From the NCBI GenBank assembly GCA_964589775.1, contig CAZPUN010000017.1, positions 30,001 to 62,000 of the forward strand: DNA of 32,000 nt. The letters are read 5' to 3'. Below the pieces are notes generated by a model that searched no databases, was not told the DNA's origin, and saw nothing but the letters and a program-made list of their open reading frames with translations. Made by a program: the position numbers and the translations under genes. Position 1 is the first letter of the stretch. Every line of letters starts with the position of its first letter. Positions 4,209 to 24,901 of this stretch are shown piece after piece. This DNA is from an uncultured archaeon. GTDB lineage: Archaea; Asgardarchaeota; Thorarchaeia; Thorarchaeales; CAZPUN01.

Positions 4209-5252
4209 GTGAATTTTGTGACTGATCTCCTAAAAGAACGATACTCACGTCAAATTAAGGTTCCAATTATTGGACAAAAAGGCCAATTAAAAATAAAACA
4301 CGCACGAGTAGCAGTCATAGGAGCAGGAGGATTAGGATCACAATTAATTTACCAAATTGTAGGACTTGGAGTTGGATTTTTGAGAATAGTAGACCGCGAT
4401 TTTGTAAGTATATCAAACTTGCACAGACAAATTTTATACACAACAGAAGATATTGGACGCCCAAAAGTTGAAGTTGCAGAAGAAAAATGCAAAAAGATGA
4501 ATCCGGAAATATCAATCGACGCAATACATACAACGATTAACAAATACAATGCATATGAGATCGTAAAGGATGTAGATATAGTTCTAGATGGCTTAGATTC
4601 GTTCCAAGTTCGAAAATATATTGCAGATGCATGTTGGGAATTAAATAAACCATATATTTTTGGAGGTGCAAAACTACTATATGGGAACGTATCAACATTC
4701 ATACGGGATAAGAGTCCATGTTTTAGTTGTGTATTCGAAAACATGATGGACGAAGCGCCTTGTGTAGAATTTGGAATAATACCCGAAATATTAGGAGTGG
4801 TTGCATCAATACAAGTAATGGAAGCACTCTATATAATATTAGGAAAAAAGCCAAATTTAATTGGAAAGATGTTATATATTGATTTGAGTGACCTTTCATT
4901 TGAAAGAATAGACTTATTTGGAGAGAAAAATTGTAACTTATGTAATAAAGAGGATGATAAAATGATAGACAAACAGGATGTCGTCATTTCAATCTTATGT
5001 GATGGAAAAACATATGACATTTCACCAAAAAAATTCATAAATATCAATTTAAGTAAAGTCAAGGAAATTGTTGAACCAGAATATAAAGTAGATGTAATGA
5101 CAAGAAATGGTATAATTTTCTGGTATTCCCCAGAAACAAAAATAAGCTTAATGAAACGGGGATCCATGGTAATAACAGGTGTAGATACAGAAGAAAAAGC
5201 ATTAAAAATTTATGAAACGATAATGAGTAAAATAGAAGATGCCATCAGCTAG
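4209..5252 (+). CDS. ThiF/MoeB/E1-like adenylyltransferase with C-terminal TBP-like domain
   Basis: GAGGLG, DRDFVSISNLHRQ, PCFSC and NCNLC Zn pairs, putative catalytic Cys in PCVEFG; tail GSMVITGVDTEEKALKIYE. Confidence 0.9.
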   Translation: MNFVTDLLKERYSRQIKVPIIGQKGQLKIKHARVAVIGAGGLGSQLIYQIVGLGVGFLRIVDRDFVSISNLHRQILYTTEDIGRPKVEVAEEKCKKMNPEISIDAIHTTINKYNAYEIVKDVDIVLDGLDSFQVRKYIADACWELNKPYIFGGAKLLYGNVSTFIRDKSPCFSCVFENMMDEAPCVEFGIIPEILGVVASIQVMEALYIILGKKPNLIGKMLYIDLSDLSFERIDLFGEKNCNLCNKEDDKMIDKQDVVISILCDGKTYDISPKKFININLSKVKEIVEPEYKVDVMTRNGIIFWYSPETKISLMKRGSMVITGVDTEEKALKIYETIMSKIEDAIS

Positions 5253-5683
5253 GCACTGAAAAACAATCGACGACGACGATCATCAATATTTTCTTTTTCT
5301 TGCTTATTTACAATTGTCTTTGTTTCCACAGTATCATCAGACAATCGAGACCAAATATCTTCAAGATCATCAATAAATTCCGGTTGAGTATCAAATTTTT
5401 TATCCTTGTTAGGTATAGAATCATTTGATTCTGCATAATCAAAAGTTCTTCTCTTTTCATAGACACCAGATGTGACTTGACGGGAGGTATGAATATCAAC
5501 ACCAAGTAAATTAAACAGAGACTCAGTATAAGTATCACTTACCTTCTCGATGGCATTAACGATAAATTGTGCAGTTTCTACATACAGTTCAGGATTCTTT
5601 TTCAATTCTAAATATTTCTTAACAAGCAGCAGTCCATCTAAAACGCCTTTCCAGTAATCAAAGTCACTCTTGGTATTTAACAT
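5249..5683 (-). CDS. Hypothetical protein: helical N-domain plus acidic disordered tail
   Basis: ATG 5683 preceded by GGTGAA SD-like motif; divergent from the 5812 gene. Confidence 0.7.
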   Translation of the reverse strand: MLNTKSDFDYWKGVLDGLLLVKKYLELKKNPELYVETAQFIVNAIEKVSDTYTESLFNLLGVDIHTSRQVTSGVYEKRRTFDYAESNDSIPNKDKKFDTQPEFIDDLEDIWSRLSDDTVETKTIVNKQEKENIDDRRRRLFFSA

Positions 5684-5811
5684 AATTAAATTCACCAAAT
5701 AGATTTTACTGAAAAACAAATTAGACTTTATGTATTACGTGCAATCATATAAAAAAGCCTTTTATAAAGAAAATTAGATATTAGATATAATATAGACAAG
5801 GGAGATAGAAG

Positions 5812-6249
5812 ATGACAAATAAAAAGAAGAAATATCTTTTCAAGATTACCGTAGATGGTCCAAATGATGCTCTAAATCAAGATGTTTTAAAAATTATAAC
5901 ACAATCATATGTACAGATACACGGACTTGGAATTTATGAAACTACAAAAGAAACAGACAACGAACAAATAAATACTGTGATAATGTCTCCAAAGCATGAT
6001 GCAATGCATTTTATCTTATCGCTTTCATATAAAAGAAGTTCCGGAGCCTTAATTGTTTTGGAAGAAAAATATAAAGATCGAGTCCATGAATACGAAGAAC
6101 GCGTTGTCAAAAATGCAGGAGAAATTCCAACACGTATAATCGTGATACCAAAGGAAACAAATTCAGAAGAGCTTAAGAAATTAGTAGAGAAATATCTCGA
6201 CGAATTAATAGATGCAATTATTGAAATAAAAATAGGTGGAAATAAGTGA
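5812..6249 (+). CDS. Degenerate Rab/Ras-like small GTPase-fold protein (pseudo-GTPase)
   Basis: KYLFKITVDG, GLGIYETTKETDNEQINTVIMSP, SYKRSSGALIV, GEIPTRIIV follow the Rab strand/helix order; GKS/T, DxxG and NKxD absent. Confidence 0.6.
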   Translation: MTNKKKKYLFKITVDGPNDALNQDVLKIITQSYVQIHGLGIYETTKETDNEQINTVIMSPKHDAMHFILSLSYKRSSGALIVLEEKYKDRVHEYEERVVKNAGEIPTRIIVIPKETNSEELKKLVEKYLDELIDAIIEIKIGGNK

Positions 6250-6587
6250 AATACACCTATTTTATATATATTGGTTTTAGTTTAATTTTGTTAGGGAGTA
6301 TACTTTTAATTTTTGGAACTGAAAATATGGACTCTATTCTAATTATATTTCCATTTATAATTACTACAGATAATAATCCATTAATAATTATTATCACGTT
6401 TAGTATCGCAATATTCATACCACTCCTTATAATGCTTAATATTTTTAATTTTAATAATGAACAAAAATACAAGAAATGCCCAAAGTGTAAAGCAATTTCC
6501 GTAAGAGATGCAAGTTTCTGTTGGAATTGTGGATACAAGTTTGATGATGAAAATGATGAGCATATCAATTCGGAAAGCAACAATTGA
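6246..6587 (+). CDS. Small membrane protein with C-terminal zinc ribbon
   Basis: Hydrophobic segments followed by CPKC...CWNCG; GTGA overlap with upstream stop. Confidence 0.8.
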   Translation: MKYTYFIYIGFSLILLGSILLIFGTENMDSILIIFPFIITTDNNPLIIIITFSIAIFIPLLIMLNIFNFNNEQKYKKCPKCKAISVRDASFCWNCGYKFDDENDEHINSESNN

Positions 6588-7014
6588 AGATATCGATGTA
6601 ATCGTAAAAATTGAGGAATCCTGCTTTATTGATAATTGGGATTTTGATACATTTTATGAGATTTTAACTTCAGGAAGTTCGTTTAGTCTAAATAAAAGTA
6701 ACATACACATATATGTTGCAACCTTTGAAGATATTATAATAGGATACATATGTTTTTCAATCAACAAAACAGTTGGGCATATTCTTAATTTTGCAGTTTT
6801 TAGAGATTATAGAAATAAAGGAGTCGGTACCAAGTTATTAAAAAACGCAATTAACATAATGAGAGAAAACGGATGTAAAAGAATAATTTTAGAAGTTTCT
6901 ACTATTAATGAGAATGCAATATCGTTATATAAAAAATTCGGATTCAAAAATAAAAAAATATTGAAAAATTATTATCGAATGAATGATGCATATCGTTTTG
7001 AATTGATACTTTAA
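6553..7014 (+). CDS. RimI/Ard1-like GNAT N-terminal acetyltransferase
   Basis: IRKATIEDI, GHILNFAV...YRNKGVG, LEVSTINENAISLYKKFGF, YY...DAY; start likely ATG 6553 or 6556. Confidence 0.9.
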   Translation: MMSISIRKATIEDIDVIVKIEESCFIDNWDFDTFYEILTSGSSFSLNKSNIHIYVATFEDIIIGYICFSINKTVGHILNFAVFRDYRNKGVGTKLLKNAINIMRENGCKRIILEVSTINENAISLYKKFGFKNKKILKNYYRMNDAYRFELIL

Positions 7015-10000
7015 GATCCTCTCCTAAATTTTATTAGCTGAGGTCCAATGATTTCAGAATAGATTTTTACATAACCAGGATCTATTGATACCAATGAAAC
7101 AATGGGTGCTTTTTGTGCTTGTGGAGCTAATAGTAATTCTTCAGAATCCCTAAGACAAATGTAAGAAGGAATTTCTCCAGTCCAGATTTCCCAGCCTAGG
7201 TCCTTTATTTTTTGATACAACTCATGAGTTTTCTTTAATGGTGAAATAAGAACACGCTTTGCACCTGTTGGGACTTGTGATAACTGCTCAACAGAAATTG
7301 ATTCAATATCTGGAACAGATAAAATAACGATCGATTTTGTTCTACTGAGCATATCTGATATGTGGGCAATTATTGCGTCTTTTCCGGTGATATGCCAAGT
7401 GAGTTCAGAACCAGGTGGGATAAACCGATCTGTGATTTTCCATAATTCTTCTAATAATTGAGAGAATTTGGTAGTTTCAGAAATTGCAGATTGCGAACTT
7501 TCAATGATCTTCTTAAATGATTTGTTTATTTTTGTATCATATGAAGAAAGATCAGTTTTTACCTTTTTACCAATAGTGTCAAAAATTTCTTTTGTTTCAG
7601 AAATCATTTTTGAACTTTCACGATTTATAATCAAATTGAGTTCATCAGACACACTATCAATTTCGGATTTTGTTGTTTGATTTATTTGATTTACCAAATT
7701 AGATATTTTTGTCTCAAGAGATTTGATATTACGTTTAACAATTACATTAATATTTTTCCCAGTAGTTTCTGTAACTTTACGGATATTATTTATTGAACCT
7801 GAGATAATACTTTCAATAGCTTCAGTATTACCAGTTAAGTGCTGAATTACTGAATTAAGAAGCTTAGAATGCGTATCACTAATTGAATTTGCAGTGCTTA
7901 TGAATGCAGTATTAGAGCTATTTAGAGATTCTGAAACTAATGATAATGAGTTATCGATATTGTTTATAGACATATTTTGATATTCAGATAAAGCAGAATT
8001 GAACTTTGAGAATATTTCATCATGCTTTGATTTTAGTGCAGTAAAGTTATCATTTATTACGGAAACAATATTGTCATTAATTTGAGACGTTATAGTTCGA
8101 GTAATATCGATTGATTTATTGATTTCATTTTCAAGAATTGTTCGCATCTTACCAGTGAGATTTATCTTTAGTGAATTAAGTAATTCGATGTTTTCAGACT
8201 TAATGTTATCTATTTGCTCATATGAGTCCTTAATTATTATAGATACACGATCTGATGATGCTTCTGCAGTAGTTACTAAATTCAATAAGCCAGAAGAAAT
8301 TTGGTCGCGTGCATTTGCAATAAGACCATCGGTCTTCATTTTAATCGATTTAATAGTATCATCAAGGGTCTTATCTAATAAAATTCGATCTTCGGATATA
8401 GATTCAACAAGCGTATTTATAGAATTAATAAATACACTCTGTTTTTCAGATATTGATTGATCATAGAATTCATCAATTTTCGTAAATGAGTTAGATATTT
8501 CAGAGAATATATCTTGCAAAACCTCTTTTTGGGAGTTTGCATAGGATTCGACATATTTGTTAATAGATAGGGAAATTTTGTTAATCTGATTTATTGATTT
8601 AGATATAGTAGATTGAGATAATTCTCGAATTGTTGATTCAGATTCATTAATTTTTGATGAAAGAGATTCACTAACACCAGTTAATTCCTCATGGATTGGT
8701 GTAGAGATACTATCATATAGATCATGAGATCGTTGTGTATAGCTTGATAATAATTTCTTCAGAGAGGTATCAAGGGTAGAAACCATTTCTTGCGTTTCAA
8801 GAATGTTGTTGTTAACAAGTTCATTGAGTTCTGCCTGAACTGCATTAAGCTTTTCATCAACCGTTTTAACATACTTATCTAAGACACCCTCAATATTTGA
8901 TTTGATTAATTGAGAATGCTCGTTGATTTTCTTCAATTCACTGTTGACGAGTTCAGTAAATTCAGTATATGACTTTCGAATCTGAACTTTAGTATCATCA
9001 ATATGGCTTTCTAGAAACTGGTTCATAGAATATTCAAACGAATGTACCATGTCAATAAAACTTGAAATCATTTGTTCAGAGAATTTTTTGAATTCTTGCT
9101 TTATTCTTTCTTTTTCAGCATCTAGCTTTGAAACTTGGGAATCTACAAGCTTTACTACTGTCTCATTTAAAGATCCGGCATAATCATTTATTTTCGTCAA
9201 ACTAGAGGTTATCTCTTCAAAAATTACTGTGTCAAGATTGTTTAGTACATTTCTAATTTCATCACTTAGAGATTTTGAGATTTGAGAATATGCAGATTCA
9301 ACCTCATCGATCTTTGAAGATATTGAAGATTTATAACGATTTATCAAATCAAGAATTTCATCTAATGTTGATGTGGATAATTCATCACTGGACTTGCTAA
9401 ACTCATCGATATATGTTTTAACAATTTGCTGAACTTTAGATAGGGATTCATCAACCGCATTTTTTACGTCTCTAAGATTTGATATAGAGGTATTCGCAGT
9501 TGAATCAATAGTATCACGAACTTCTTTGATTAACTTCTTGTGTTCAGCATCAATACTTTTTGTTATTTCATGACTCTTAGCAGTATATTCTTCATTTAGT
9601 AATTTGAATGATTTTTCAATTTCGTCTTTGATTGTTGATTCAACACTATGTACAACTTCCTTACCAGATAGACTTATTGACTCAGCTAATGATTTTAATT
9701 GCTCTAGATATTCCTTTCGCTTTTTATACAATTGCTCGTATTCATTTAAAATTGCAGAACGAGAGTTTTTCAAAAAAGTATCTTCTAGACTATGGATTCT
9801 TTCCAATTGTGCTATTGCAGAAGATCTTATAATCTCAATATACGTATCAATTCCATTTCGCCATTCATCAATCTCGTTATTAACCGCAGCTAAGCTATCA
9901 CGCGCATTCTCAAAAGCCTTCTCCACAGATTTTAGAATTTCTTGATTACTTGTATCAATTTCACCAATTGCATGTTCTAAAGAAGTTCTTGCATCATCAC

Positions 10001-10907
10001 TCAATTTTGATAACTCTTGAATACTATCTTGAGAGATGCGTTCAATTTTCTTCGAGATTGTTGCCAATAAAGTATCTATTTGATTAGTATCCATGGATTT
10101 AATTTCAGATACGCTTTTTGCGATATCAGAAAGAACTGAAACAAAATCAGATTTAAGCTTTGATAAAACAGTCTCAATTTTTTCGGATACATTAGAAATT
10201 GTTTCATTTAAAGTATTGAGTGTCTCATCAATTTTTTTATCAGCCGACACCTTTTCATTATTAAGAGAATCAATAATTGTATCAGAACGAGTGGATATTG
10301 TTTTATTAATTTGCTCACGTACTGTATCAAGTTCAGATATTATATTTTTTAAAGACGTATCAATTTCATTTTTCAATGATGAGACGATCTCATTGATATT
10401 TGATTTGCTACTTGAACTAACACCTGAAAGGTATGAATCTATACTTTTTTCAAGTTCATCAACGATTTTCTTTATCAAGCTTTGAGTTTCGGACATAATA
10501 GCTTTTGATGTTGCTTCAATGCTTTCCGTGGTTTTTGCAAAGCTATTTTGGAAATCATCAATTATTTTTGAAATCAAATTTATTACTTCAGATGATCCAG
10601 ATTCTGCAACCTCACTCATTTTTGAAAATGACTTAGTAACCTGACGTATCGTTTCACTTAATGATTCAAATGGAGGAGCAGCTTTATATTTTACTACAAC
10701 GCCTTCAATTTTTATTATAAACTTACGGGCAATTAAATTAGACAGAATCGATTCGACTGAGCTAAGAGATAATTTTGATAAAATTGAGATTTCACCAGAA
10801 GTTAAAGGACCTGCAACCAAGATAGGTAAATATACGGAAACTTCATCAGTACTTAGCTCAAAATTTTTTGAGAGTATGTCTTGAATAACTTGATATTCAT
10901 CACTCAT
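7011..10907 (-). CDS. Giant TrmB-like protein: N-terminal winged HTH, ~1080-aa hendecad helical rod, C-terminal TrmB/PLD-like domain
   Basis: N-term LSTDEVSVYL...GPLTSGEI...KYKAAPP; C-term WHITGKDAI...MLSRTKSIVILSVP and CLRDSEELLL; nearly Pro-free amphipathic rod with 11-residue periodicity. Confidence 0.75.
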   Translation of the reverse strand: MSDEYQVIQDILSKNFELSTDEVSVYLPILVAGPLTSGEISILSKLSLSSVESILSNLIARKFIIKIEGVVVKYKAAPPFESLSETIRQVTKSFSKMSEVAESGSSEVINLISKIIDDFQNSFAKTTESIEATSKAIMSETQSLIKKIVDELEKSIDSYLSGVSSSSKSNINEIVSSLKNEIDTSLKNIISELDTVREQINKTISTRSDTIIDSLNNEKVSADKKIDETLNTLNETISNVSEKIETVLSKLKSDFVSVLSDIAKSVSEIKSMDTNQIDTLLATISKKIERISQDSIQELSKLSDDARTSLEHAIGEIDTSNQEILKSVEKAFENARDSLAAVNNEIDEWRNGIDTYIEIIRSSAIAQLERIHSLEDTFLKNSRSAILNEYEQLYKKRKEYLEQLKSLAESISLSGKEVVHSVESTIKDEIEKSFKLLNEEYTAKSHEITKSIDAEHKKLIKEVRDTIDSTANTSISNLRDVKNAVDESLSKVQQIVKTYIDEFSKSSDELSTSTLDEILDLINRYKSSISSKIDEVESAYSQISKSLSDEIRNVLNNLDTVIFEEITSSLTKINDYAGSLNETVVKLVDSQVSKLDAEKERIKQEFKKFSEQMISSFIDMVHSFEYSMNQFLESHIDDTKVQIRKSYTEFTELVNSELKKINEHSQLIKSNIEGVLDKYVKTVDEKLNAVQAELNELVNNNILETQEMVSTLDTSLKKLLSSYTQRSHDLYDSISTPIHEELTGVSESLSSKINESESTIRELSQSTISKSINQINKISLSINKYVESYANSQKEVLQDIFSEISNSFTKIDEFYDQSISEKQSVFINSINTLVESISEDRILLDKTLDDTIKSIKMKTDGLIANARDQISSGLLNLVTTAEASSDRVSIIIKDSYEQIDNIKSENIELLNSLKINLTGKMRTILENEINKSIDITRTITSQINDNIVSVINDNFTALKSKHDEIFSKFNSALSEYQNMSINNIDNSLSLVSESLNSSNTAFISTANSISDTHSKLLNSVIQHLTGNTEAIESIISGSINNIRKVTETTGKNINVIVKRNIKSLETKISNLVNQINQTTKSEIDSVSDELNLIINRESSKMISETKEIFDTIGKKVKTDLSSYDTKINKSFKKIIESSQSAISETTKFSQLLEELWKITDRFIPPGSELTWHITGKDAIIAHISDMLSRTKSIVILSVPDIESISVEQLSQVPTGAKRVLISPLKKTHELYQKIKDLGWEIWTGEIPSYICLRDSEELLLAPQAQKAPIVSLVSIDPGYVKIYSEIIGPQLIKFRRGS

Positions 10908-11725
10908 TTTTCTCCCTCCTTGATCTCATCTGAGATAAGTGAAAAAAGCGTTCTAAGACTACGTATCGGCATATTAATACCCCAATGTGAATCATTATCT
11001 TCAAAAACTTCAATAATTACATATGATTTAGATTCAGAATTTTGTATCTCAACATACTTGAATAGTTCACCCAATTTTTCAAAATATATAGACCGATCAA
11101 TCAAGTGGGGTATTTCAAATTTTAAAATGCCCCAATTCCGTATTGGATATGATAAGACGTAATCAATTGCATATATTTTCTTAAAGGATTCTAAATAAAG
11201 CTCAAATTGGTCTATCGTGGAGATTACAGAATTCGTGGGATTTACAATAGCAATACCTTTTATAAAGTTAAATTCGATTAACAGGTCATTAGCTGATATA
11301 AGAAGATATTTAGCCTTTCTAACCATAAAGTAATCGTCCCATTTATTTTTTGCAAAATTTATGAATTCGCGCATGGAACGTACTTTTACTAATTTAAATA
11401 AATCTTTAATATAAATTCGCTTATCATTAACACTCATACCATGCCCATCAATAAATGCTTTAATTTCAGTCATATGTTGAGAATAACAATACTTAGGGAG
11501 GTGCTCATGCTTCATACCAATATCAATCATCATGTTTAGAAGATTTCTATTTTCACAATCGGGCTTTATGCTGCATGTTAAACGATCTGATTGGCATTGC
11601 GCACATTTTGTTTCAACCAGTTTTAACATTTCTTGCATTATACCATTATCATCAGTTCTATTAAGAAAGCATACACGAGATGCAAAGTCAAGACTATATC
11701 GTGCATAATCCAAATTCAATCCCAC
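10904..11725 (-). CDS. Hypothetical Cys-cluster (putative metal-binding) protein
   Basis: CAQC-x6-C-x5-C and LPKYCY; ATGA overlap with the giant gene. Confidence 0.75.
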   Translation of the reverse strand: MGLNLDYARYSLDFASRVCFLNRTDDNGIMQEMLKLVETKCAQCQSDRLTCSIKPDCENRNLLNMMIDIGMKHEHLPKYCYSQHMTEIKAFIDGHGMSVNDKRIYIKDLFKLVKVRSMREFINFAKNKWDDYFMVRKAKYLLISANDLLIEFNFIKGIAIVNPTNSVISTIDQFELYLESFKKIYAIDYVLSYPIRNWGILKFEIPHLIDRSIYFEKLGELFKYVEIQNSESKSYVIIEVFEDNDSHWGINMPIRSLRTLFSLISDEIKEGEK

Positions 11726-11797
11726 CGAGATTTTAGTTTAGTTCTAAAATATAAAATAAAAAAGAAGATATTTAGCTTTTCTATTGCCCATTAAATT

Positions 11798-12484
11798 TTA
11801 TTTTCGGCGACTGAGAACTTTTTCAATTCGTTGTATCCAAGAATCAATGTCAGATTTTAATGCATTTACATCTGCATCGTTCAACGTCTGGCCCTCAGGA
11901 TATGATTTTAAATTCTTAGACCATTTTCCCATTTCGAAAAGTAGCGGTAGATATGTGGGTAACAAATCAGGCATACGATCTCGGAGGATTTCCATCGTTC
12001 TAGATAGTTCATGCGCATCTAAGTTCACTGAAATTTTTGATTTTAATTCTGTTAAAATACCAATTGCAGTGGGAGATTCGGAATTCAGTGACTCTAATTC
12101 AATACTATCTCGCTCAGGTTCAGGAACACTATGCGAAATAATTTGTGATGATGAAATTGTACTAGCAGTAGAAATATAGGGTTCACTTGATGTTTCTTTA
12201 CTCTTTTCCTCTGAAGATACAACAGCAGCTGTCTCATGAACTGCAGTCTTTTGTGACGCCAGAAAAGATTCAATTTGATTTAGCGCCTTATTGTATTTTC
12301 GCTCCAATGAATCCATTTGTTGAACAATTATTGCCACAATTTCACGAATTTCTTCTGTAAATTCTCTCAACTCATTAATTGTGGATTGCATTGAAGACAG
12401 TTCTTCAAGCTTATTTTCGATTTTTTTTAATTTTGCTATAATTTCTTTATTTTCATTACTTGTTTTCTTTTTCCCCGCTGACAT
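11798..12484 (-). CDS. Coiled-coil + Ser/Glu linker + Vps28 C-terminal-domain-like helical bundle protein
   Basis: C-term KWSKNLKSYPEGQTLNDADVNALKSDIDSWIQRIEKVL resembles the Vps28-CTD pattern W-x3-L...(D/Q)(T/E)L-x4-V-x2-L-x2-D(L/I). Confidence 0.55.
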   Translation of the reverse strand: MSAGKKKTSNENKEIIAKLKKIENKLEELSSMQSTINELREFTEEIREIVAIIVQQMDSLERKYNKALNQIESFLASQKTAVHETAAVVSSEEKSKETSSEPYISTASTISSSQIISHSVPEPERDSIELESLNSESPTAIGILTELKSKISVNLDAHELSRTMEILRDRMPDLLPTYLPLLFEMGKWSKNLKSYPEGQTLNDADVNALKSDIDSWIQRIEKVLSRRK

Positions 12485-12515
12485 AAATAATCCCTATAAA
12501 AAAAATAATTACTGA

Positions 12516-13367
12516 CTAAAAAACTTTGGCATTTTTTAGAATCTGCTTGCCCTTATAATATGGAAGACCTATCGCCTCAAAAATATCGATTAAATGACGC
12601 CTTTGCTTGCCTGAACACCCTTTCCAATCAATAATTGCAAAATCGATTTTGGAATCGGTCCGTTCAACCATCTTACGTACCATGTCTTCATCTAATTGGT
12701 CAAGTACATATTTTGCGGCCATATGTCCAATAGCGATGTCTGTCGAATACACAATATCATTAAATTTTGAGACATAGTGCCCTCCACCAAAACCAATAGC
12801 ATTCTTTTCTGAATGCTTATATTCTAATGCGATCCGCATAATAGAGCGAGCTACAGCCAAAGCACCCAATTTGTTGTTCCAATGGGTTTCATCACTACCC
12901 AATTCAACAAATATAATGGGAGTATTCAGATCAGTTGGACCATGATGCGTTGCTTCGAGCGATACATCAAAATCGTTCAAACTAAGAATTATCTTTTGAC
13001 GCATTAATTCGATAAGTGCGAGTTTTAATGCCATAGGCGCAGATACCGCAATTTCACGCGGATTTCCACCCAACGATGCATCATTACCAAGATTTCCAGG
13101 AGTATGTGCTAATAATGCAGGTACGCCAGATTTAGATTTATGACGAGATGCAAAAATAAATAGGTCGGTCTTGAATTTTTTCTCGATATGATTTGTATTG
13201 ATTAAATCTCTATCAGATGTTATTAATAATACATCAGTATCTTTGAACCTATACACGATATAGCCGTCAAATTCAATTTCAGTTGTATTAAATTCAAAGT
13301 GTGTCAACAATTGCCGTTTAATTGTCAAAGACGCCATGTCCTTAGATGATGCAATGATATAGGGCAT
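12516..13367 (-). CDS. dtdA: Archaeal D-aminoacyl-tRNA deacylase (DtdA/GEK1)
   Basis: FASRH, AHTPGN, EATHHGPT, FVELGS, GFGGGHY, GHMAAKY, IDWKG. Confidence 0.95.
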   Translation of the reverse strand: MPYIIASSKDMASLTIKRQLLTHFEFNTTEIEFDGYIVYRFKDTDVLLITSDRDLINTNHIEKKFKTDLFIFASRHKSKSGVPALLAHTPGNLGNDASLGGNPREIAVSAPMALKLALIELMRQKIILSLNDFDVSLEATHHGPTDLNTPIIFVELGSDETHWNNKLGALAVARSIMRIALEYKHSEKNAIGFGGGHYVSKFNDIVYSTDIAIGHMAAKYVLDQLDEDMVRKMVERTDSKIDFAIIDWKGCSGKQRRHLIDIFEAIGLPYYKGKQILKNAKVF

Positions 13368-13377
13368 TTATAATCGC

Positions 13378-14577
13378 CTACAATATGATTTCAACTGATT
13401 CTTCAATTCGCTCTTGAATTTCAGACTCAATCTTTAATTTATATTCATGTATTTTCTCATGATGCTTTTTAAGATCGTCTTGCGATTTTAGTAAGACATT
13501 TTGATGATATTCTAGATTGCGTTTTGCTTCTTCTAAGGCGTCTTCTAATTCCTTGAGGCGTGTATAAACATTTGAATTTTGTAATAGCTCATTCTTACGT
13601 GAAATAAGCTCTTTCGCTTTCTTTTGAATTTTTAATAATGAACCATTAATTATTTTTTCAGATTCTTCAATTGCTCGCCTTTGCAGGCGGTCCTTTAAAG
13701 AGAGATTTCCGGCATTTATCGTTTCAATTAGTCCGCGCAATGCCGCCTTTAAAGAAGGATAACCATCATCATCTTCATAAATAGCATTTAGTGGATCTTC
13801 AGAATATGATGAAATAGCCTTTGCACCACCGGGATATACCGTAGCAGTATGCTCATCCATTGCCTTTTGATACTTTTTAAAGGCTTTCTTCAATGGACTT
13901 AATTTCATTTTAAGTTCGCTTTCAAGAGATTTAATATCTGCATCTATAGACAAAAGTTCAGCTGCCTTTGTACTCTCCATAAATTTTTCAAGTTCGGTTT
14001 GTGCTTTCTCTAATTCAATTTTCGCAGTTTTAGATTTTGATTCCGCCATTTTGATTTCTTCTTCATAAAAACTAATCTTATCGATAAGAGAATACATGTT
14101 TTCAATATGATCTTTGACACGTTCAAGATCCTTTACCCATGAATAGGCCTGCATAAATTTTAGCAATTTTTGATAATCACTCTGAAGTATTTTTAATAAA
14201 TGGTCTAGATCACGAATTATCGGTTTATACTTTTTGTCTAATCTAGGGATCCAACGCCGGCCCCAATCAGTAATTTCAACGAAAAATGAACGAATACTTT
14301 TCTCCAAATTTTCAATACCGGAATATGTTATCTCTTCAGGAATTTCAATAGAATCTACAAGTTCTTTTATTTTTTCACCATATCTATAAGCAATTCCTTC
14401 AAGTTCTGCAGTTTCTTCAGGGCCACTAAGACGCTCTGCCACTTCAATTATATCAGGTAATAACTTCTTAATTGAATTTACAATTTTTTTACCATCATTT
14501 CTGAAAGACTTTGTTTTCTTACTAATCTTTTTAGAGTACCATTTCTCCAATTCCGAGATTTTAATTTTGGACGGCAA
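13378..14577 (-). CDS. Coiled-coil-rich hypothetical protein
   Basis: 399 aa, K/E-rich helical, two long coiled-coil segments flanking a small domain; TTG start. Confidence 0.8.
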   Translation of the reverse strand: MPSKIKISELEKWYSKKISKKTKSFRNDGKKIVNSIKKLLPDIIEVAERLSGPEETAELEGIAYRYGEKIKELVDSIEIPEEITYSGIENLEKSIRSFFVEITDWGRRWIPRLDKKYKPIIRDLDHLLKILQSDYQKLLKFMQAYSWVKDLERVKDHIENMYSLIDKISFYEEEIKMAESKSKTAKIELEKAQTELEKFMESTKAAELLSIDADIKSLESELKMKLSPLKKAFKKYQKAMDEHTATVYPGGAKAISSYSEDPLNAIYEDDDGYPSLKAALRGLIETINAGNLSLKDRLQRRAIEESEKIINGSLLKIQKKAKELISRKNELLQNSNVYTRLKELEDALEEAKRNLEYHQNVLLKSQDDLKKHHEKIHEYKLKIESEIQERIEESVEIIL

Positions 14578-14638
14578 TGCATCGACACACTCCTAATTAG
14601 AAAAATAAAAAACAAAAACACTTTTCAATATTTGTATA

Positions 14639-15130
14639 TTAGATAAAATCTGGCGCACGTAATCCAAGCGCCTCCATTTTGGCAAAACCTTGTGAAAATA
14701 AACTCATATAATGTCTAATCTCTGTTTCAATTTCTAATAATTCAGAAATGATTAATGATGCTTCATCTGTATCTTTTTCGCTGATTGCATCAATAAGATC
14801 TGTTAATAAATCACTAAATCGCATTAATAATTCTTCAATATTGTCAAGAATATCCAACATGGATTGAAGAACTGCACTATATTCCGGACCAGAAACAGCC
14901 GATAAAACATCGCCAATGGCTAATCTACAATTATCAACTTGAGAAAGCCTATGTGCAATTAAGACATCTCGTAAGTCTATGAGATAAGTTAACATTTCTT
15001 CATGCGTGAATTTTAATAGTTCATCAAGAGATAGATATTGAACTTGAGGACCAAATTCAGTACCTTCAAAAGACAACCATTGATTAAAAGCTTCTATTAC
15101 CCTTTCCCAGTTTTGAATAAGATCGTCCAT
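14639..15130 (-). CDS. Acidic all-helical hypothetical protein
   Basis: ATG 15130 preceded by GAGGAGGT SD; Leu/Asp/Glu-rich amphipathic helices. Confidence 0.8.
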   Translation of the reverse strand: MDDLIQNWERVIEAFNQWLSFEGTEFGPQVQYLSLDELLKFTHEEMLTYLIDLRDVLIAHRLSQVDNCRLAIGDVLSAVSGPEYSAVLQSMLDILDNIEELLMRFSDLLTDLIDAISEKDTDEASLIISELLEIETEIRHYMSLFSQGFAKMEALGLRAPDFI

Positions 15131-15192
15131 ATAATACCTCCTCAAAACGTAATATTCATATCTATAAATATTAAACGAATCATTGAATTACA

Positions 15193-16365
15193 TTGAAATG
15201 TAGAAAGCATTCACTATCCATCCTCGAACCATACTATTCGAATAATAAAATCTATGACAAATATTCATTCTTAACAAATATAAACTATTTTAAAGAATGC
15301 GAGTCAGAACTTAAAATAGCAATATATCCGTATAATATCGATGAAATTTTAGATGAAATTAAAACAATCCCAAATTTATTAGTAATCTCAAAACAGAATT
15401 ATATTTTTGTAGATCATGAATTATCAATCAATATAAACATGTTTAATGACTCAAAATTAAGAATTATAGATGTAGGAAATGTAAAATTTGGGATAATTCA
15501 AAATGACGAACTTTTTGATAATTCTATAATCGATTTGCTAATTAACGAAAAAGTCAATGCAATAATATATGTCTCATGGACACTAAACACCGAATTTTCA
15601 GAACTACTTGATAAAATCATTCAAGGCGATTCTGTAAAGCTAAATGTATTTTTTATATATCTAACATTAGGCAATCCATTAGGACCAAATAAAACAAAAA
15701 TATACAATGCAAAAGGGATAGATATAACAGAAGAAGACAATTTTAAAATTGCACCAATAAAATTAGCAAAACAAATAGAGATACGAAACTCAATTGGAGC
15801 GCCATATTTCAATTTACCAAAAATAAAGTATTCAAAAGAAAAAGGAGAGCCGAAAAGAAGAATAACAGGAAGAGACGAGGGCGGATTAATTAATTGGATA
15901 TCAATTTCTACATATGATGTAATAAATTTGAAACATGTCATAGCAAATAAGAAATTTACAATACTAAATACAAAAAATATTGCACAGATAAACCAAATAT
16001 TTAGATTTGCTATTGAAGAAAAATCCCTTGTGAAAAAGGCATATATCGAATTTCATAATGAGATTTTTGATCTTAAATATGTAATTAATAGCAATACAAT
16101 TACATTTACATTACCCAAGATGCTTTTACCTGGAGAGCAAATTACATTCCATATAGAGTATGAAATTTTTCAATCAAATGCACTTAAAGTATTAACAGGA
16201 GGATTTATGAGTTCAATTGGAGTCATTAATGTGCATAAAAAAGAGTATACATTTACAATTAATCCAAATAAAATTATAACAATGGATGGAACTATCCGAA
16301 ATGTTTGGAGCAATAACAATCTAAATAAAGATTTAGAAATTGGAATAAAATATGAACAGAAATAA
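15193..16365 (+). CDS. Hypothetical protein with degenerate nitrilase/CN-hydrolase-like N-domain and beta-rich C-domain
   Basis: IIDVGNVKFGIIQNDELF...KVNAIIYVSW and NKTKIYNAKG resemble nitrilase motifs without the catalytic Cys; start uncertain. Confidence 0.55.
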   Translation: MKCRKHSLSILEPYYSNNKIYDKYSFLTNINYFKECESELKIAIYPYNIDEILDEIKTIPNLLVISKQNYIFVDHELSININMFNDSKLRIIDVGNVKFGIIQNDELFDNSIIDLLINEKVNAIIYVSWTLNTEFSELLDKIIQGDSVKLNVFFIYLTLGNPLGPNKTKIYNAKGIDITEEDNFKIAPIKLAKQIEIRNSIGAPYFNLPKIKYSKEKGEPKRRITGRDEGGLINWISISTYDVINLKHVIANKKFTILNTKNIAQINQIFRFAIEEKSLVKKAYIEFHNEIFDLKYVINSNTITFTLPKMLLPGEQITFHIEYEIFQSNALKVLTGGFMSSIGVINVHKKEYTFTINPNKIITMDGTIRNVWSNNNLNKDLEIGIKYEQK

Positions 16366-19433: not shown

Positions 19434-20273
19434 ATGCCATTTGAGAAAACTTGCCCAGTATGCGGTATGAATGTTAGTATTGATACAATTATATGTCCAT
19501 ATTGCGGTTCGAAAATAGGAGAAGAAAAACTAGAAAGAATTTTACCTTTCTTAAAGCGCGACACCACTCCCGAACCAGTCCCATTAGGAACCTTTCGAAG
19601 AATATATGGTGTATTAAGATATCCAGCATCTACATTTCGCGATATTGCATTAAGACCCGCAAAAGGATCTTTCTTTATCATAATGTTATTTGCTTTACTT
19701 AACCTTGCATTTATGTTAATTGCTGTAAGTCACATATACATTACAGAAACAGTTTATGTAACCGTCGGAAATAGTACAGTACCACAAGTAGTAGATTCAA
19801 GTATTTTACTTTCAAACACATATGGTCCTAGTGGATTACTAATAGTTTTCGGTTGGTTTATACCAATGCTATTAACAATAATAATTATTTGGTTCATTGG
19901 TTCATTCTTTGCATGGCTAGCGTACAAATTTGCTGGGGGAACAGGAAAATACAAACATACCTTAAATATGATTGCATTTACAATGGTACCATTATTATTA
20001 CTACGAACGATGTTCATACCAATTTTAATTGTGGGATTACCAAACATCCAATATGGGGGTTCAGAATATACATTTGATGCATTAAATACACTAATTGTAA
20101 ACAATCCAATATGGGGTGTACTAAATGCACTTACAGCAGTTGGTTTAATCTGGGCAGGTTTTCTATTAATCTTTGGGATTAGAGAAGTCCATAAAACACC
20201 AACATTACATGCAGTCATTCTTGCAATTATATCAACCGCAGTAATGATTGGAGTTTTTCTATGGGCACTATAG
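19434..20273 (+). CDS. Zinc-ribbon + Yip1-domain membrane protein
   Basis: CPVC...CPYCG; VLRYPASTFRDI, FAGGTGKYKHTL...FTMVP, FGIREVHK; ~5 TM segments. Confidence 0.8.
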   Translation: MPFEKTCPVCGMNVSIDTIICPYCGSKIGEEKLERILPFLKRDTTPEPVPLGTFRRIYGVLRYPASTFRDIALRPAKGSFFIIMLFALLNLAFMLIAVSHIYITETVYVTVGNSTVPQVVDSSILLSNTYGPSGLLIVFGWFIPMLLTIIIIWFIGSFFAWLAYKFAGGTGKYKHTLNMIAFTMVPLLLLRTMFIPILIVGLPNIQYGGSEYTFDALNTLIVNNPIWGVLNALTAVGLIWAGFLLIFGIREVHKTPTLHAVILAIISTAVMIGVFLWAL

Positions 20274-23457: not shown

Positions 23458-24303
23458 TCAGAAAACATGATATATAATATCATCATCAATTGCATAAGCT
23501 CGAATTCTAACCCAGTCTTCTTTTATATAAGGAACAATGTAATAAAATAGATTTTTTCTATAATTTTCTTCACCAATACTTTTACGAACTAAATCAGAGA
23601 TATCTTTAAGAATTTGTTCTAAGATTGCACGTATTTCGCGATATTTAAACGATTCTAATTCTTTACTGGAAAAATTAGTTAATGCGATGCCATTTCTATC
23701 GAATACAAATTTTTGAGTGTGAATATATTTGTTTAATGCTTCGGAATGCATATTTTTAATTTTGCTAATAATTTCGGCTCTATTTTCTTGATCGACCATC
23801 CGTAGCAGGCGATAATACAACTGTTCATAAACTTCAAGACTATCCATTGCTTTCTTTGCAATTACATTTTCATCAATTAATTCAAACTGCCCTACAAGTT
23901 CATCAACTTTATTATCTAGTATAGACAACGCTTTAGACAATTCTGAATTGAATTTTAAAAAGTGTTCAAGGGTTTGACCACTCTCTTTTAGATATTTTTC
24001 AAAAATTTCATATAACGTTTCCAGCATAGCTTTGATATAAGATTTGTTTATTTTTAATGCAGTTGCAGCCATTAGAACGATTGGCCCACGCTTAACCCAA
24101 ATAAAACGCGTATCCTCAGTATCTACGCTTTTCAATCGATCATCGATCATTTCATTATTTAGAATTGCATATATTCCACTAAGTTGACCAGATAATAATT
24201 CAAATTGATTATTAAATTCTGCAGCATAAGTCCTTTGATATATACTACGGCCCGATTCAGCTTCAATTATAAAGACAGCTTTAATATCATGTTTAGAATT
24301 CAA
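23458..24303 (-). CDS. Longin-like domain protein with helical C-terminal domain
   Basis: AVFIIEAESGRSIYQRTY...LLSGQLSGI...LKSVDTEDTRFIWVKRGPIVLMAAT...MLETLYEIFEKY fits the longin beta-beta-alpha-beta-beta-beta-alpha pattern. Confidence 0.7.
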   Translation of the reverse strand: MNSKHDIKAVFIIEAESGRSIYQRTYAAEFNNQFELLSGQLSGIYAILNNEMIDDRLKSVDTEDTRFIWVKRGPIVLMAATALKINKSYIKAMLETLYEIFEKYLKESGQTLEHFLKFNSELSKALSILDNKVDELVGQFELIDENVIAKKAMDSLEVYEQLYYRLLRMVDQENRAEIISKIKNMHSEALNKYIHTQKFVFDRNGIALTNFSSKELESFKYREIRAILEQILKDISDLVRKSIGEENYRKNLFYYIVPYIKEDWVRIRAYAIDDDIIYHVF

Positions 24304-24361: not shown

Positions 24362-24901
24362 TCACTGAGGAGAAGTTCCCATAATTTTTTGAAGAATTGA
24401 ACTAAGACCAAAACCAACTAGAAAATAGAAAGACCAAAAGTATAACCCAAAACCAAAACTTGTAGATATACCTGCCCAACCTGCTACAGGTAAAATCTTA
24501 TCTAAATTAAAAGGCAATATTGCAACAACTTCATCACCAAATAATGCGCGTAGCAAGCTAAAGAGGATCAAAAATGGTATAAAGAAGATTAACATAGGCT
24601 TAAATCGAGCTTTCATTGTATATGATTGAATTTTTGATATATATTTTTCCTTTCGTTTTACTTTTTGCAATAGCTTTTTATTTTGCGTCTTTTGTGCTTC
24701 CATTTTAAGTTTTTGAAATTCCTTAATTTCTTTAGAATATCGAGCTAATTGTTTGACATCTGTAGTTAGTTTTAACGCAATATTAGATATAAAAGAAATT
24801 GAAAGACTGACTACGACAATTAAAATTATAGACATTGGTGGATTTTTAAATCCATAAAAAACGGAAACAAACCACGCTGTAAAATCGCCCCATGGGTCCA
24901 T
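24362..24901 (-). CDS. EMC3/TMCO1/DUF106 (Oxa1-superfamily) membrane insertase
   Basis: TM1, coiled coil, KPM...IPF motif, further TM segment; canonical position after secY-adk. Confidence 0.9.
   Translation of the reverse strand: MDPWGDFTAWFVSVFYGFKNPPMSIILIVVVSLSISFISNIALKLTTDVKQLARYSKEIKEFQKLKMEAQKTQNKKLLQKVKRKEKYISKIQSYTMKARFKPMLIFFIPFLILFSLLRALFGDEVVAILPFNLDKILPVAGWAGISTSFGFGLYFWSFYFLVGFGLSSILQKIMGTSPQ

Follow-up and report, generated by a model that had tools for sequence, protein, structure and literature searches.

Six genes that follow one another on the same strand, separated by short gaps, raise the question of whether they build a single machine or simply travel together. The genes considered here lie between positions 7011 and 15130 of a stretch of 32,000 nucleotides (referred to as the window) of contig CAZPUN010000017.1, from an uncultured archaeon of the order Thorarchaeales, within the Asgard archaea. 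In the order of transcription they encode an acidic helical protein (gene 1), a 399-residue helical protein (gene 2), the D-aminoacyl-tRNA deacylase DtdA (gene 3, dtdA), a protein with a coiled coil and a bundle that resembles the C-terminal domain (CTD) of Vps28 (gene 4), a protein with a cluster of cysteines (gene 5) and a 1298-residue rod protein with a winged helix-turn-helix (wHTH) head (gene 6). No known organisms are more closely related to eukaryotes than the Asgard archaea, and the parts of their endosomal sorting complexes required for transport, ESCRT-I and ESCRT-II, are used to reconstruct the origin of eukaryotic membrane trafficking. An earlier reading of the window, made from its letters and named here the sequence-only reading, had proposed that the six genes are a module centered on dtdA that positions the ESCRT machinery.

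The comparisons described below point to a different answer. The stretch is probably a set of neighboring genes inherited as a block within the Thorarchaeia, made of at least three units, and no single machine. Genes 5 and 6 would be the only unit in it that is stable in evolution, and gene 4 would combine a coiled-coil stalk with a domain that is probably a distant homologue of the bundle at the C-terminus of Vps28.

Conservation of the gene order

The closest relatives of the host among public genomes are the metagenome-assembled genomes (MAGs) of “Candidatus Thorarchaeota”, and the host genome (2.16 Mb, 31% GC) represents a family that is sister to the usual Thorarchaeal MAGs. Conservation inside the order was evaluated in 17 genera of this sister family, which were compared over the approximately 20 kb that surround the homologue of gene 4. 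All six genes were found in the same order and orientation in 16 of the 17 loci; in the remaining one (locus L025, genome G024), genes 1 to 4 are kept in place, a GNAT gene comes directly after gene 4, and genes 5 and 6 are absent. The flanks are equally collinear. On one side they hold genes for an aminotransferase, a ThiF protein, a 145-residue protein, a Zn-ribbon protein and a GNAT protein, and on the other side those for a 213-residue protein, a RimK-type ligase and the proteasome alpha subunit. Since these unrelated flanks are kept equally well, the six genes hold their order no better than the neighborhood as a whole.

In the Thorarchaeal relatives, genes 1 and 2 are set apart by a small wHTH gene and by a gene for a protein of ~220 residues, the latter on the opposite strand. 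Because the relatives carry these extra genes, the arrangement of the six genes as an operon is not ancestral. The additional segment corresponds to L013:5506-6626 and to the equivalent positions of L016, L017, L020, L024 and L026; it holds the wHTH gene and, in most of these loci, also the ~220-residue gene, and both are absent in the smaller genome of the host.

If the five genes other than dtdA worked together, they would be expected to remain together across Asgard genomes, as the sequence-only reading itself had pointed out. Outside the Thorarchaeal order this colocalization breaks down, with the exception of genes 5 and 6: proteins similar to that of gene 4 are encoded far from gene 5 on the single contigs of genomes G041, G045 and G055, or are found on other contigs, and the sole pair that stays together is that of the Cys protein and the rod. 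Gene 2 belongs to a single-copy family of ~410-430 residues that extends throughout the Asgard archaea (160 of 201 genomes). When tblastn and hidden Markov models (HMMs) built from Thorarchaeal homologues were applied to 20 gene 2 loci outside the order, the other five genes were absent within 10 kb, and no neighbor of gene 2 recurred across the distant loci. In databases its homologues are called only “hypothetical protein”, or bear automatic labels on truncated copies, and an Atlas search returned only unnamed archaeal clusters. The product of gene 1 (~163 residues, isoelectric point 4.2, helical) matches no Pfam or NCBIfam family, and its homologues are present in all 17 Thorarchaeal loci.

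The DNA of the stretch was also inspected for signals that could delimit transcripts. The six minus-strand genes exist as they had been listed from the sequence, in the same order and with short gaps (61, 10, 31 and 72 bp, from gene 1 to gene 5), and the claimed coupling of genes 5 and 6 corresponds to 4 nt that they share at 10904-10907. The T-tracts that had been flagged at three places (near ~14600, ~12500 and ~11750) are there as well (Table 1). Read by eye, the intergenic DNA contains T-tracts and TATA-like boxes in the gaps between genes 1 and 2, 3 and 4, and 4 and 5, and a GGAGG motif and a TATA-like box precede the ATG at 15130; this ATG is probably the true start of gene 1, whose homologues begin at the same residue. 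A scan for sigma-70 promoters, a model that is not applicable to archaea, gave matches no better than those of shuffled DNA. The signals fit three units, namely gene 1, the pair of gene 2 and dtdA (to which gene 4 may or may not belong) and the pair of genes 5 and 6. Gene 1, with a promoter-like box of its own and a T-tract behind it, probably stands alone, and gene 2 and dtdA, which starts only 10 bp behind it, are probably co-transcribed, perhaps together with gene 4.

The identity of dtdA, the center of the proposed module, is firmly established: the protein matches PF04414 over profile positions 3-203 of 205 (E-value 5e-68, 229 bits, cut-off 33.6) as well as NCBIfam PRK03995 (E-value 7e-72), and the gene is the sole copy in the genome. 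It encodes the ordinary D-aminoacyl-tRNA deacylase of the cell. None of the other five proteins gives a significant match to a Pfam or NCBIfam enzyme family, which agrees with the absence of enzyme motifs noted before.

A link between dtdA and ftsZ, which lie close to each other in several euryarchaea, was considered for the host and five related genomes, and rejected there. The genome has two genes of the FtsZ/tubulin type, one on the contig of the window (C17:23201-23680) and one at C18:26071-26625. The first is located 6.3 kb before the start of the window, ~13 kb beyond gene 6 and ~19 kb from dtdA, and the second lies 7 kb from a paralogue of gene 4. In the five relatives every copy of ftsZ is either on a different contig or at a distance of more than 400 kb, and since the proximity is not kept in them, it is treated here as chance.

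The Cys protein and the giant rod

Among 20 loci from distant lineages, 11, which represent 8 of 14 families, have a homologue of gene 6 directly downstream of gene 5 on the same strand, and in several of these pairs the two genes overlap. The gene 6 homologues of the 11 pairs measure 836-1310 residues where they are whole; the copy in L055, of 717 residues, is cut at the end of its contig. Genome G024 provides the complementary observation, given that in this assembly, which is 94% complete, genes 5 and 6 are missing together, both from the conserved site and from the rest of the sequence. Genes 5 and 6 are regarded as a stable unit because they are adjacent across distant families and jointly absent in G024. 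A search of the literature found no paper that describes this pair.

The gene 5 family is present in 140 of 201 Asgard genomes. Among 37 Asgard homologues, Cys41, Cys44 and Cys80 are invariant and Cys57 is conserved in ~90%, and these four cysteines probably form a Zn or Fe-S site. The AF2 model of the protein (predicted local distance difference test, pLDDT, 90.9; predicted template modeling score, pTM, 0.88) consists of an N-terminal helical half that contains the four cysteines and a C-terminal α/β half. Comparisons of this fold gave nothing convincing, either in the PDB with Foldseek (best E-value 7e-3, template modeling score, TM, <0.25) or with VIA (best Z 7.8, confined to residues 167-273), or in the Atlas (TM at most 0.33).

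The wHTH head that had been recognized in the 1298-residue protein is supported by a PF01978 match at residues 13-79 (E-value 8e-10, 38.8 bits, cut-off 25.6), and the NCBIfam model of TrmBL2 matches residues 8-122. From residue 91 to residue 1150 the hydrophobicity of the protein has a single, sharp periodicity of 3.66 residues (11/3, a hendecad repeat), whose power of 22 compares with a maximum of 2.1 in shuffled sequences, and the whole rod of ~1060 residues contains a single proline. Its length is kept within narrow bounds, since the orthologues in 15 Thorarchaeal loci measure 1296-1306 residues despite an identity of ~20%. The rod ends in a globular domain of ~150 residues without a Pfam match, whose family is found in 68 of 71 Asgard genomes, in proteins that range from 460 to ~2090 residues, with many discrete lengths and several paralogues per genome. 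Weak leads to the identity of this domain are a best PDB profile match to FAM83B (E-value 0.19) and an Atlas feature score of 0.81 to Regulator_TrmB/PLDc_2 clusters. At C12:12777-13283, the host genome carries the same domain in a second giant protein, in an open reading frame (ORF) of 1093 residues.

By inspection, the recognition helix of the head, SLSSVESILSNL, has no lysine or arginine in the host orthologue and several in the Thorarchaeal relatives, and since the helix of the host lacks a basic residue, DNA binding by the head has to be treated as an assumption. A predicted complex of residues 1-200 and 1100-1298 of gene 6 with gene 5 reached a median score of 0.16, against a mark of 0.32, and weighs neither way. 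In the proposed mechanism, the two proteins would be made together from their overlapping genes as a stoichiometric pair, the rod, attached through its head to DNA or to another protein, would function as a spacer or strut, and the product of gene 5 would be a metal- or redox-dependent cofactor.

The bundle of gene 4

The AF2 model of gene 4 (pLDDT 80) is made of one continuous helix (residues 6-91), a disordered linker rich in Ser, Glu and Thr (93-130) and a four-helix bundle (131-227) in which pLDDT exceeds 90. The long helix bears an invariant motif at residues 48-65, and the homologues in Thorarchaeal relatives are larger (306-422 residues), with a coiled coil that is longer and variable.

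The Vps28-like character of the C-terminus, first suggested from the sequence, is borne out by several approaches, and at the level of the domain the bundle is probably a homologue of the Vps28 CTD. The rival idea, that it is merely a generic four-helix bundle whose likeness to Vps28 is convergent and has no evolutionary or functional meaning, is unlikely, although some of the results that follow speak for it. In Foldseek, the top PDB matches are Vps28 CTDs (2j9w, 2j9v and 2g3k; TM by target 0.63-0.70, root-mean-square deviation, rmsd, 2.3-2.5), with E-values of 0.16-3 that are not significant. VIA, run independently of Foldseek over 48,161 chains, places the yeast Vps28 CTD first (2j9u_A, Z 10.9, rmsd 2.8, 90 of 94 residues), and helical bundles can reach a Z of ~13 by chance. 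Moreover, neither gene 4 nor a homologue from the Thorarchaeal family f2 gives a Pfam VPS28 (PF03997) row, even at E-values of up to 10, and profile A3 does not match canonical Vps28 genes directly. Against convergence stands, in the first place, the fact that two independent aligners put the same domain at the top, the next chain in VIA being found at Z 8.7, that is, 2.2 lower.

The comparison of profiles argues in the same direction. When the complete alignment of gene 4 served as the profile for a PDB search, all matches were coiled-coil look-alikes, and domain-only comparisons were used instead, with 16 Asgard Vps28 proteins as the canonical reference profile. With Thorarchaeal gene 4 sequences only, hhalign gave 55-78% against the C-terminal helices of canonical Asgard Vps28; with the 38-sequence gene 4 family it gave 78-89% (P 2e-6 to 2e-5, 69-71 collinear columns), and with a subset of the family that excludes gene 4 itself, 82-84%, whereas reversed and unrelated controls had P of 0.06-0.22. 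The aligned region corresponds to the last three helices of the bundle. In addition, when a Vps28-CTD HMM was compared with all six-frame ORFs of the genome, gene 4 was the single best match (E-value 0.0037; the next, 0.7). As sequence evidence, these values are suggestive of homology but stay under what is commonly accepted as proof.

Proteins with the gene 4 bundle, mostly of ~170-300 residues with a few long ones, occur in 77 of 201 Asgard genomes, and the host genome holds four members of the family (Table 1). In 20 loci, no neighbor, ESCRT or other, is conserved across families. The possibility that Vps28 was lost from the Thorarchaeia and has its orthologue in gene 4 was rejected in this form, as the family coexists with canonical Vps28, at other sites, in G041, G045, G055, G074, G082 and G107. 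The gene 4 family is best described as a separate, paralogous family of short stalk-plus-bundle proteins that extends throughout the Asgard archaea. It is not in the ESCRT inventory of PMC9192718, and no description of it was found in the literature.

Two further observations concern relatives of this bundle. In genomes of family f9 (for example, G149:C121:19529-19801 and G149:C214:8067-8309), proteins of ~790-820 residues have a Pfam-detectable Vps28-CTD segment (profile 87-182), and separate proteins of ~710-740 residues end in a bundle of the gene 4 type. In G041, a single contig of 1.4 Mb, a homologue of the 145-residue protein of the window (5812-6249) is divergent from a 364-residue protein with the gene 4 bundle (L163:4527-5090 and 5197-6291), an arrangement that may be due to chance. 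Among Asgard archaea, the gene-4-type bundle seems to behave as an adaptor domain that is mobile, and the most likely role of gene 4 would be that of a protein-protein adaptor, with ESCRT-II or ESCRT-III as a candidate partner.

The ESCRT genes of the genome are located elsewhere: contigs C23 and C20 carry the Snf7-type genes, C64 carries Vps22, and no ESCRT gene was found on C17, the contig of the window. The sole Pfam VPS28 match in the genome is a 273-residue protein (C64:32082-32903) that is in fact an EAP30/Vps22 protein (EAP30 E-value 1e-14). Its N-terminal hairpin matches Pfam VPS28 positions 2-139 and Vps23_core, and the same protein is the top match of the Asgard Vps28 HMM (E-value 1e-19) through the N-terminal part of that model, where gene 4 is not matched. 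The Vps28-N-like part appears fused to ESCRT-II in this lineage. The protein clearly corresponds to the “ThorAB25_09030 Vps22” of PMC9192718, a study whose Thorarchaeal protein list contains no Vps28. Pfam detects canonical Vps28 in 137 of 201 Asgard genomes, but within the Thorarchaeal family f2 it does so in just 1 of 44.

Competing readings and known systems

Apart from convergence of the bundle, the reading that survives best takes genes 4, 5 and 6 as a unit specific to the order, in which gene 4 was recruited in the Thorarchaeia as an adaptor that tethers the rod to another complex. It accounts for the position of gene 4 directly upstream of genes 5 and 6, on the same strand, in the window and in 16 of the 17 Thorarchaeal loci, and for a bundle and a helix motif that hardly vary within the order, as if the partner they bind were conserved. 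It is nevertheless improbable, considering that G024 keeps gene 4 without genes 5 and 6, that outside the order gene-4-like proteins are distant from gene 5, and that the spacer from gene 4 to gene 5 is T-rich and TATA-like.

A bolder proposal starts from the Vps28-N-like hairpin on Vps22 and from the 43 of 44 f2 genomes in which Pfam detects no Vps28. It considers gene 4 and its paralogues as a working ESCRT-I-type adaptor that docks on ESCRT-II/III, and the fixed position of gene 4 upstream of genes 5 and 6 as the trace of a link, particular to this lineage, between membrane remodeling and a long rod of the cytoskeleton or nucleoid; there is little chance that this holds. The weakest reading is that of all six genes as one division, segregation or membrane-remodeling module, in which the rod and the adaptors (genes 1, 2 and 4) position ESCRT through the Vps28-like domain, and which can be set aside as very improbable: the common orientation, the short gaps, the order retained in Thorarchaeal genera, the bundle of gene 4 and an ftsZ gene that the contig carries 13 kb past gene 6 speak for it, and against it are the equally collinear flanks, the opposite-strand gene that parts gene 1 from gene 2 in relatives, the colocalization of only genes 5 and 6 outside the order, the absence of these two genes alone in G024, the presence of ESCRT genes on other contigs together with a gene 4 family devoid of ESCRT neighbors, and the missing ftsZ proximity in five relatives.

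The view of the stretch as a block of at least three units is itself not free of difficulties. That the six genes keep their order in 17 genera and in a second family as well represents a long-lived conservation, and a functional tie of gene 4 with genes 5 and 6, restricted to the lineage, is conceivable. As for the units proposed, the terminators and promoters are candidates called from the DNA sequence alone, and T-tracts are common at 31% GC. In the pair of genes 5 and 6, physical binding of the two products is suggested by the overlap, the adjacency and the joint absence of their genes; DNA binding by the head of the rod is uncertain; and a TrmB/PLD-like identity of its CTD is tentative.

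With these reservations, the stretch retains its interest for two reasons. One is an Asgard-wide coiled-coil family with a probable homologue of the Vps28 CTD, separate from canonical Vps28 and present where Pfam detects no Vps28; if it is true that the bundle of gene 4 binds ESCRT-II or ESCRT-III, it would be a reusable adaptor domain older than the eukaryotic ESCRT-I. The other is the pair of the Cys protein and the giant rod, a widespread pair with a structural protein of fixed length. The main practical result is negative, in that dtdA and the other neighbors are not to be annotated as parts of an ESCRT or division module.

Table 1. The six genes, the T-rich tracts between them and the paralogues of gene 4. 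Positions without a contig name are those of the window.
Feature	Position	Strand	Basis or remark
Gene 1, acidic helical protein	ORF 14639-15145, probable start ATG 15130	-	ORF list
Gene 2, 399-residue helical protein	13378-14577	-	ORF list
Gene 3, dtdA	12516-13367	-	ORF list, PF04414
Gene 4, 228 residues, coiled coil + Vps28-CTD-like bundle	11798-12484	-	ORF list, AF2 model
Gene 5, Cys-cluster protein, ~270 residues	10904-11725	-	ORF list
Gene 6, 1298-residue rod protein with TrmB-type head	7011-10907	-	ORF list, PF01978
T-rich tract (T5/T6/T5) just 3' of gene 1 stop	14601-14620	-	candidate archaeal terminator, read from sequence
T8 run between dtdA and gene 4	12498-12505	-	read from sequence
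T-rich and TATA-like sequence in the gap from gene 4 to gene 5	11745-11766	-	candidate terminator and/or promoter of gene 5-6 unit (putative function)
Gene 4 paralogue, 175 residues	C18:18454-18981		E-value 1e-20 to family profile; not adjoining ESCRT genes
Gene 4 paralogue, 239 residues	C64:12472-13191		E-value 6e-10 to family profile; not adjoining ESCRT genes
Gene 4 paralogue, 234 residues	C23:24674-25378		E-value 1e-7 to family profile; not adjoining ESCRT genes

Other genes of the window deserve a brief mention. Three of them are of the eukaryote-signature type and encode a Zn-ribbon plus Yip1 protein (19434-20273), a longin-domain protein of the FUZ/MON1/HPS1 type (23458-24303) and a membrane protein similar to EMC3/TMCO1 (24362-24901). 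Divergent from gene 1, on the plus strand, there is an ORF of 390 residues (15193-16365) that has no Pfam match and, unlike its neighbors, no tblastn match in the 17 related loci.

Three known systems allow the proteins of the stretch to be placed. The first is the D-aminoacyl-tRNA deacylase DTD2, which dtdA matches over its full length and as a single copy, as expected of an archaeal housekeeping enzyme; there is nothing unusual in dtdA itself, and what differs here is its neighbors, which are specific to the order.

The second is the ESCRT-I subunit Vps28. The model of gene 4 superposes on the whole C-terminal bundle (PDB 2J9U, 2J9W, 2J9V and 2G3K), and the two proteins share a similar size (228 residues in gene 4) and the same order of parts, that is, a helical N-terminus, a flexible linker and a C-terminal bundle. 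In Vps28, the N-terminal headpiece is a helical hairpin that pairs with Vps23, and the protein binds ESCRT-II or Vps20. Gene 4 differs in that a single long coiled-coil helix takes the place of this hairpin, in its lack of a Pfam VPS28 match and in its location away from the ESCRT genes.

The third is the archaeal TrmB/TrmBL2 family of winged-helix proteins (PF01978; NF041141), with which gene 6 shares a TrmB-type winged helix at the N-terminus and a small globular domain at the C-terminus, and the named Atlas clusters nearest to this last domain carry Regulator_TrmB or PLDc_2. Unlike those proteins, gene 6 is of fixed length in the Thorarchaeia, is paired with a Cys-cluster gene and, in the host orthologue, has a recognition helix without basic residues, and the short dimerization helix of the family is replaced in it by an unbroken hendecad helix of ~1060 residues.

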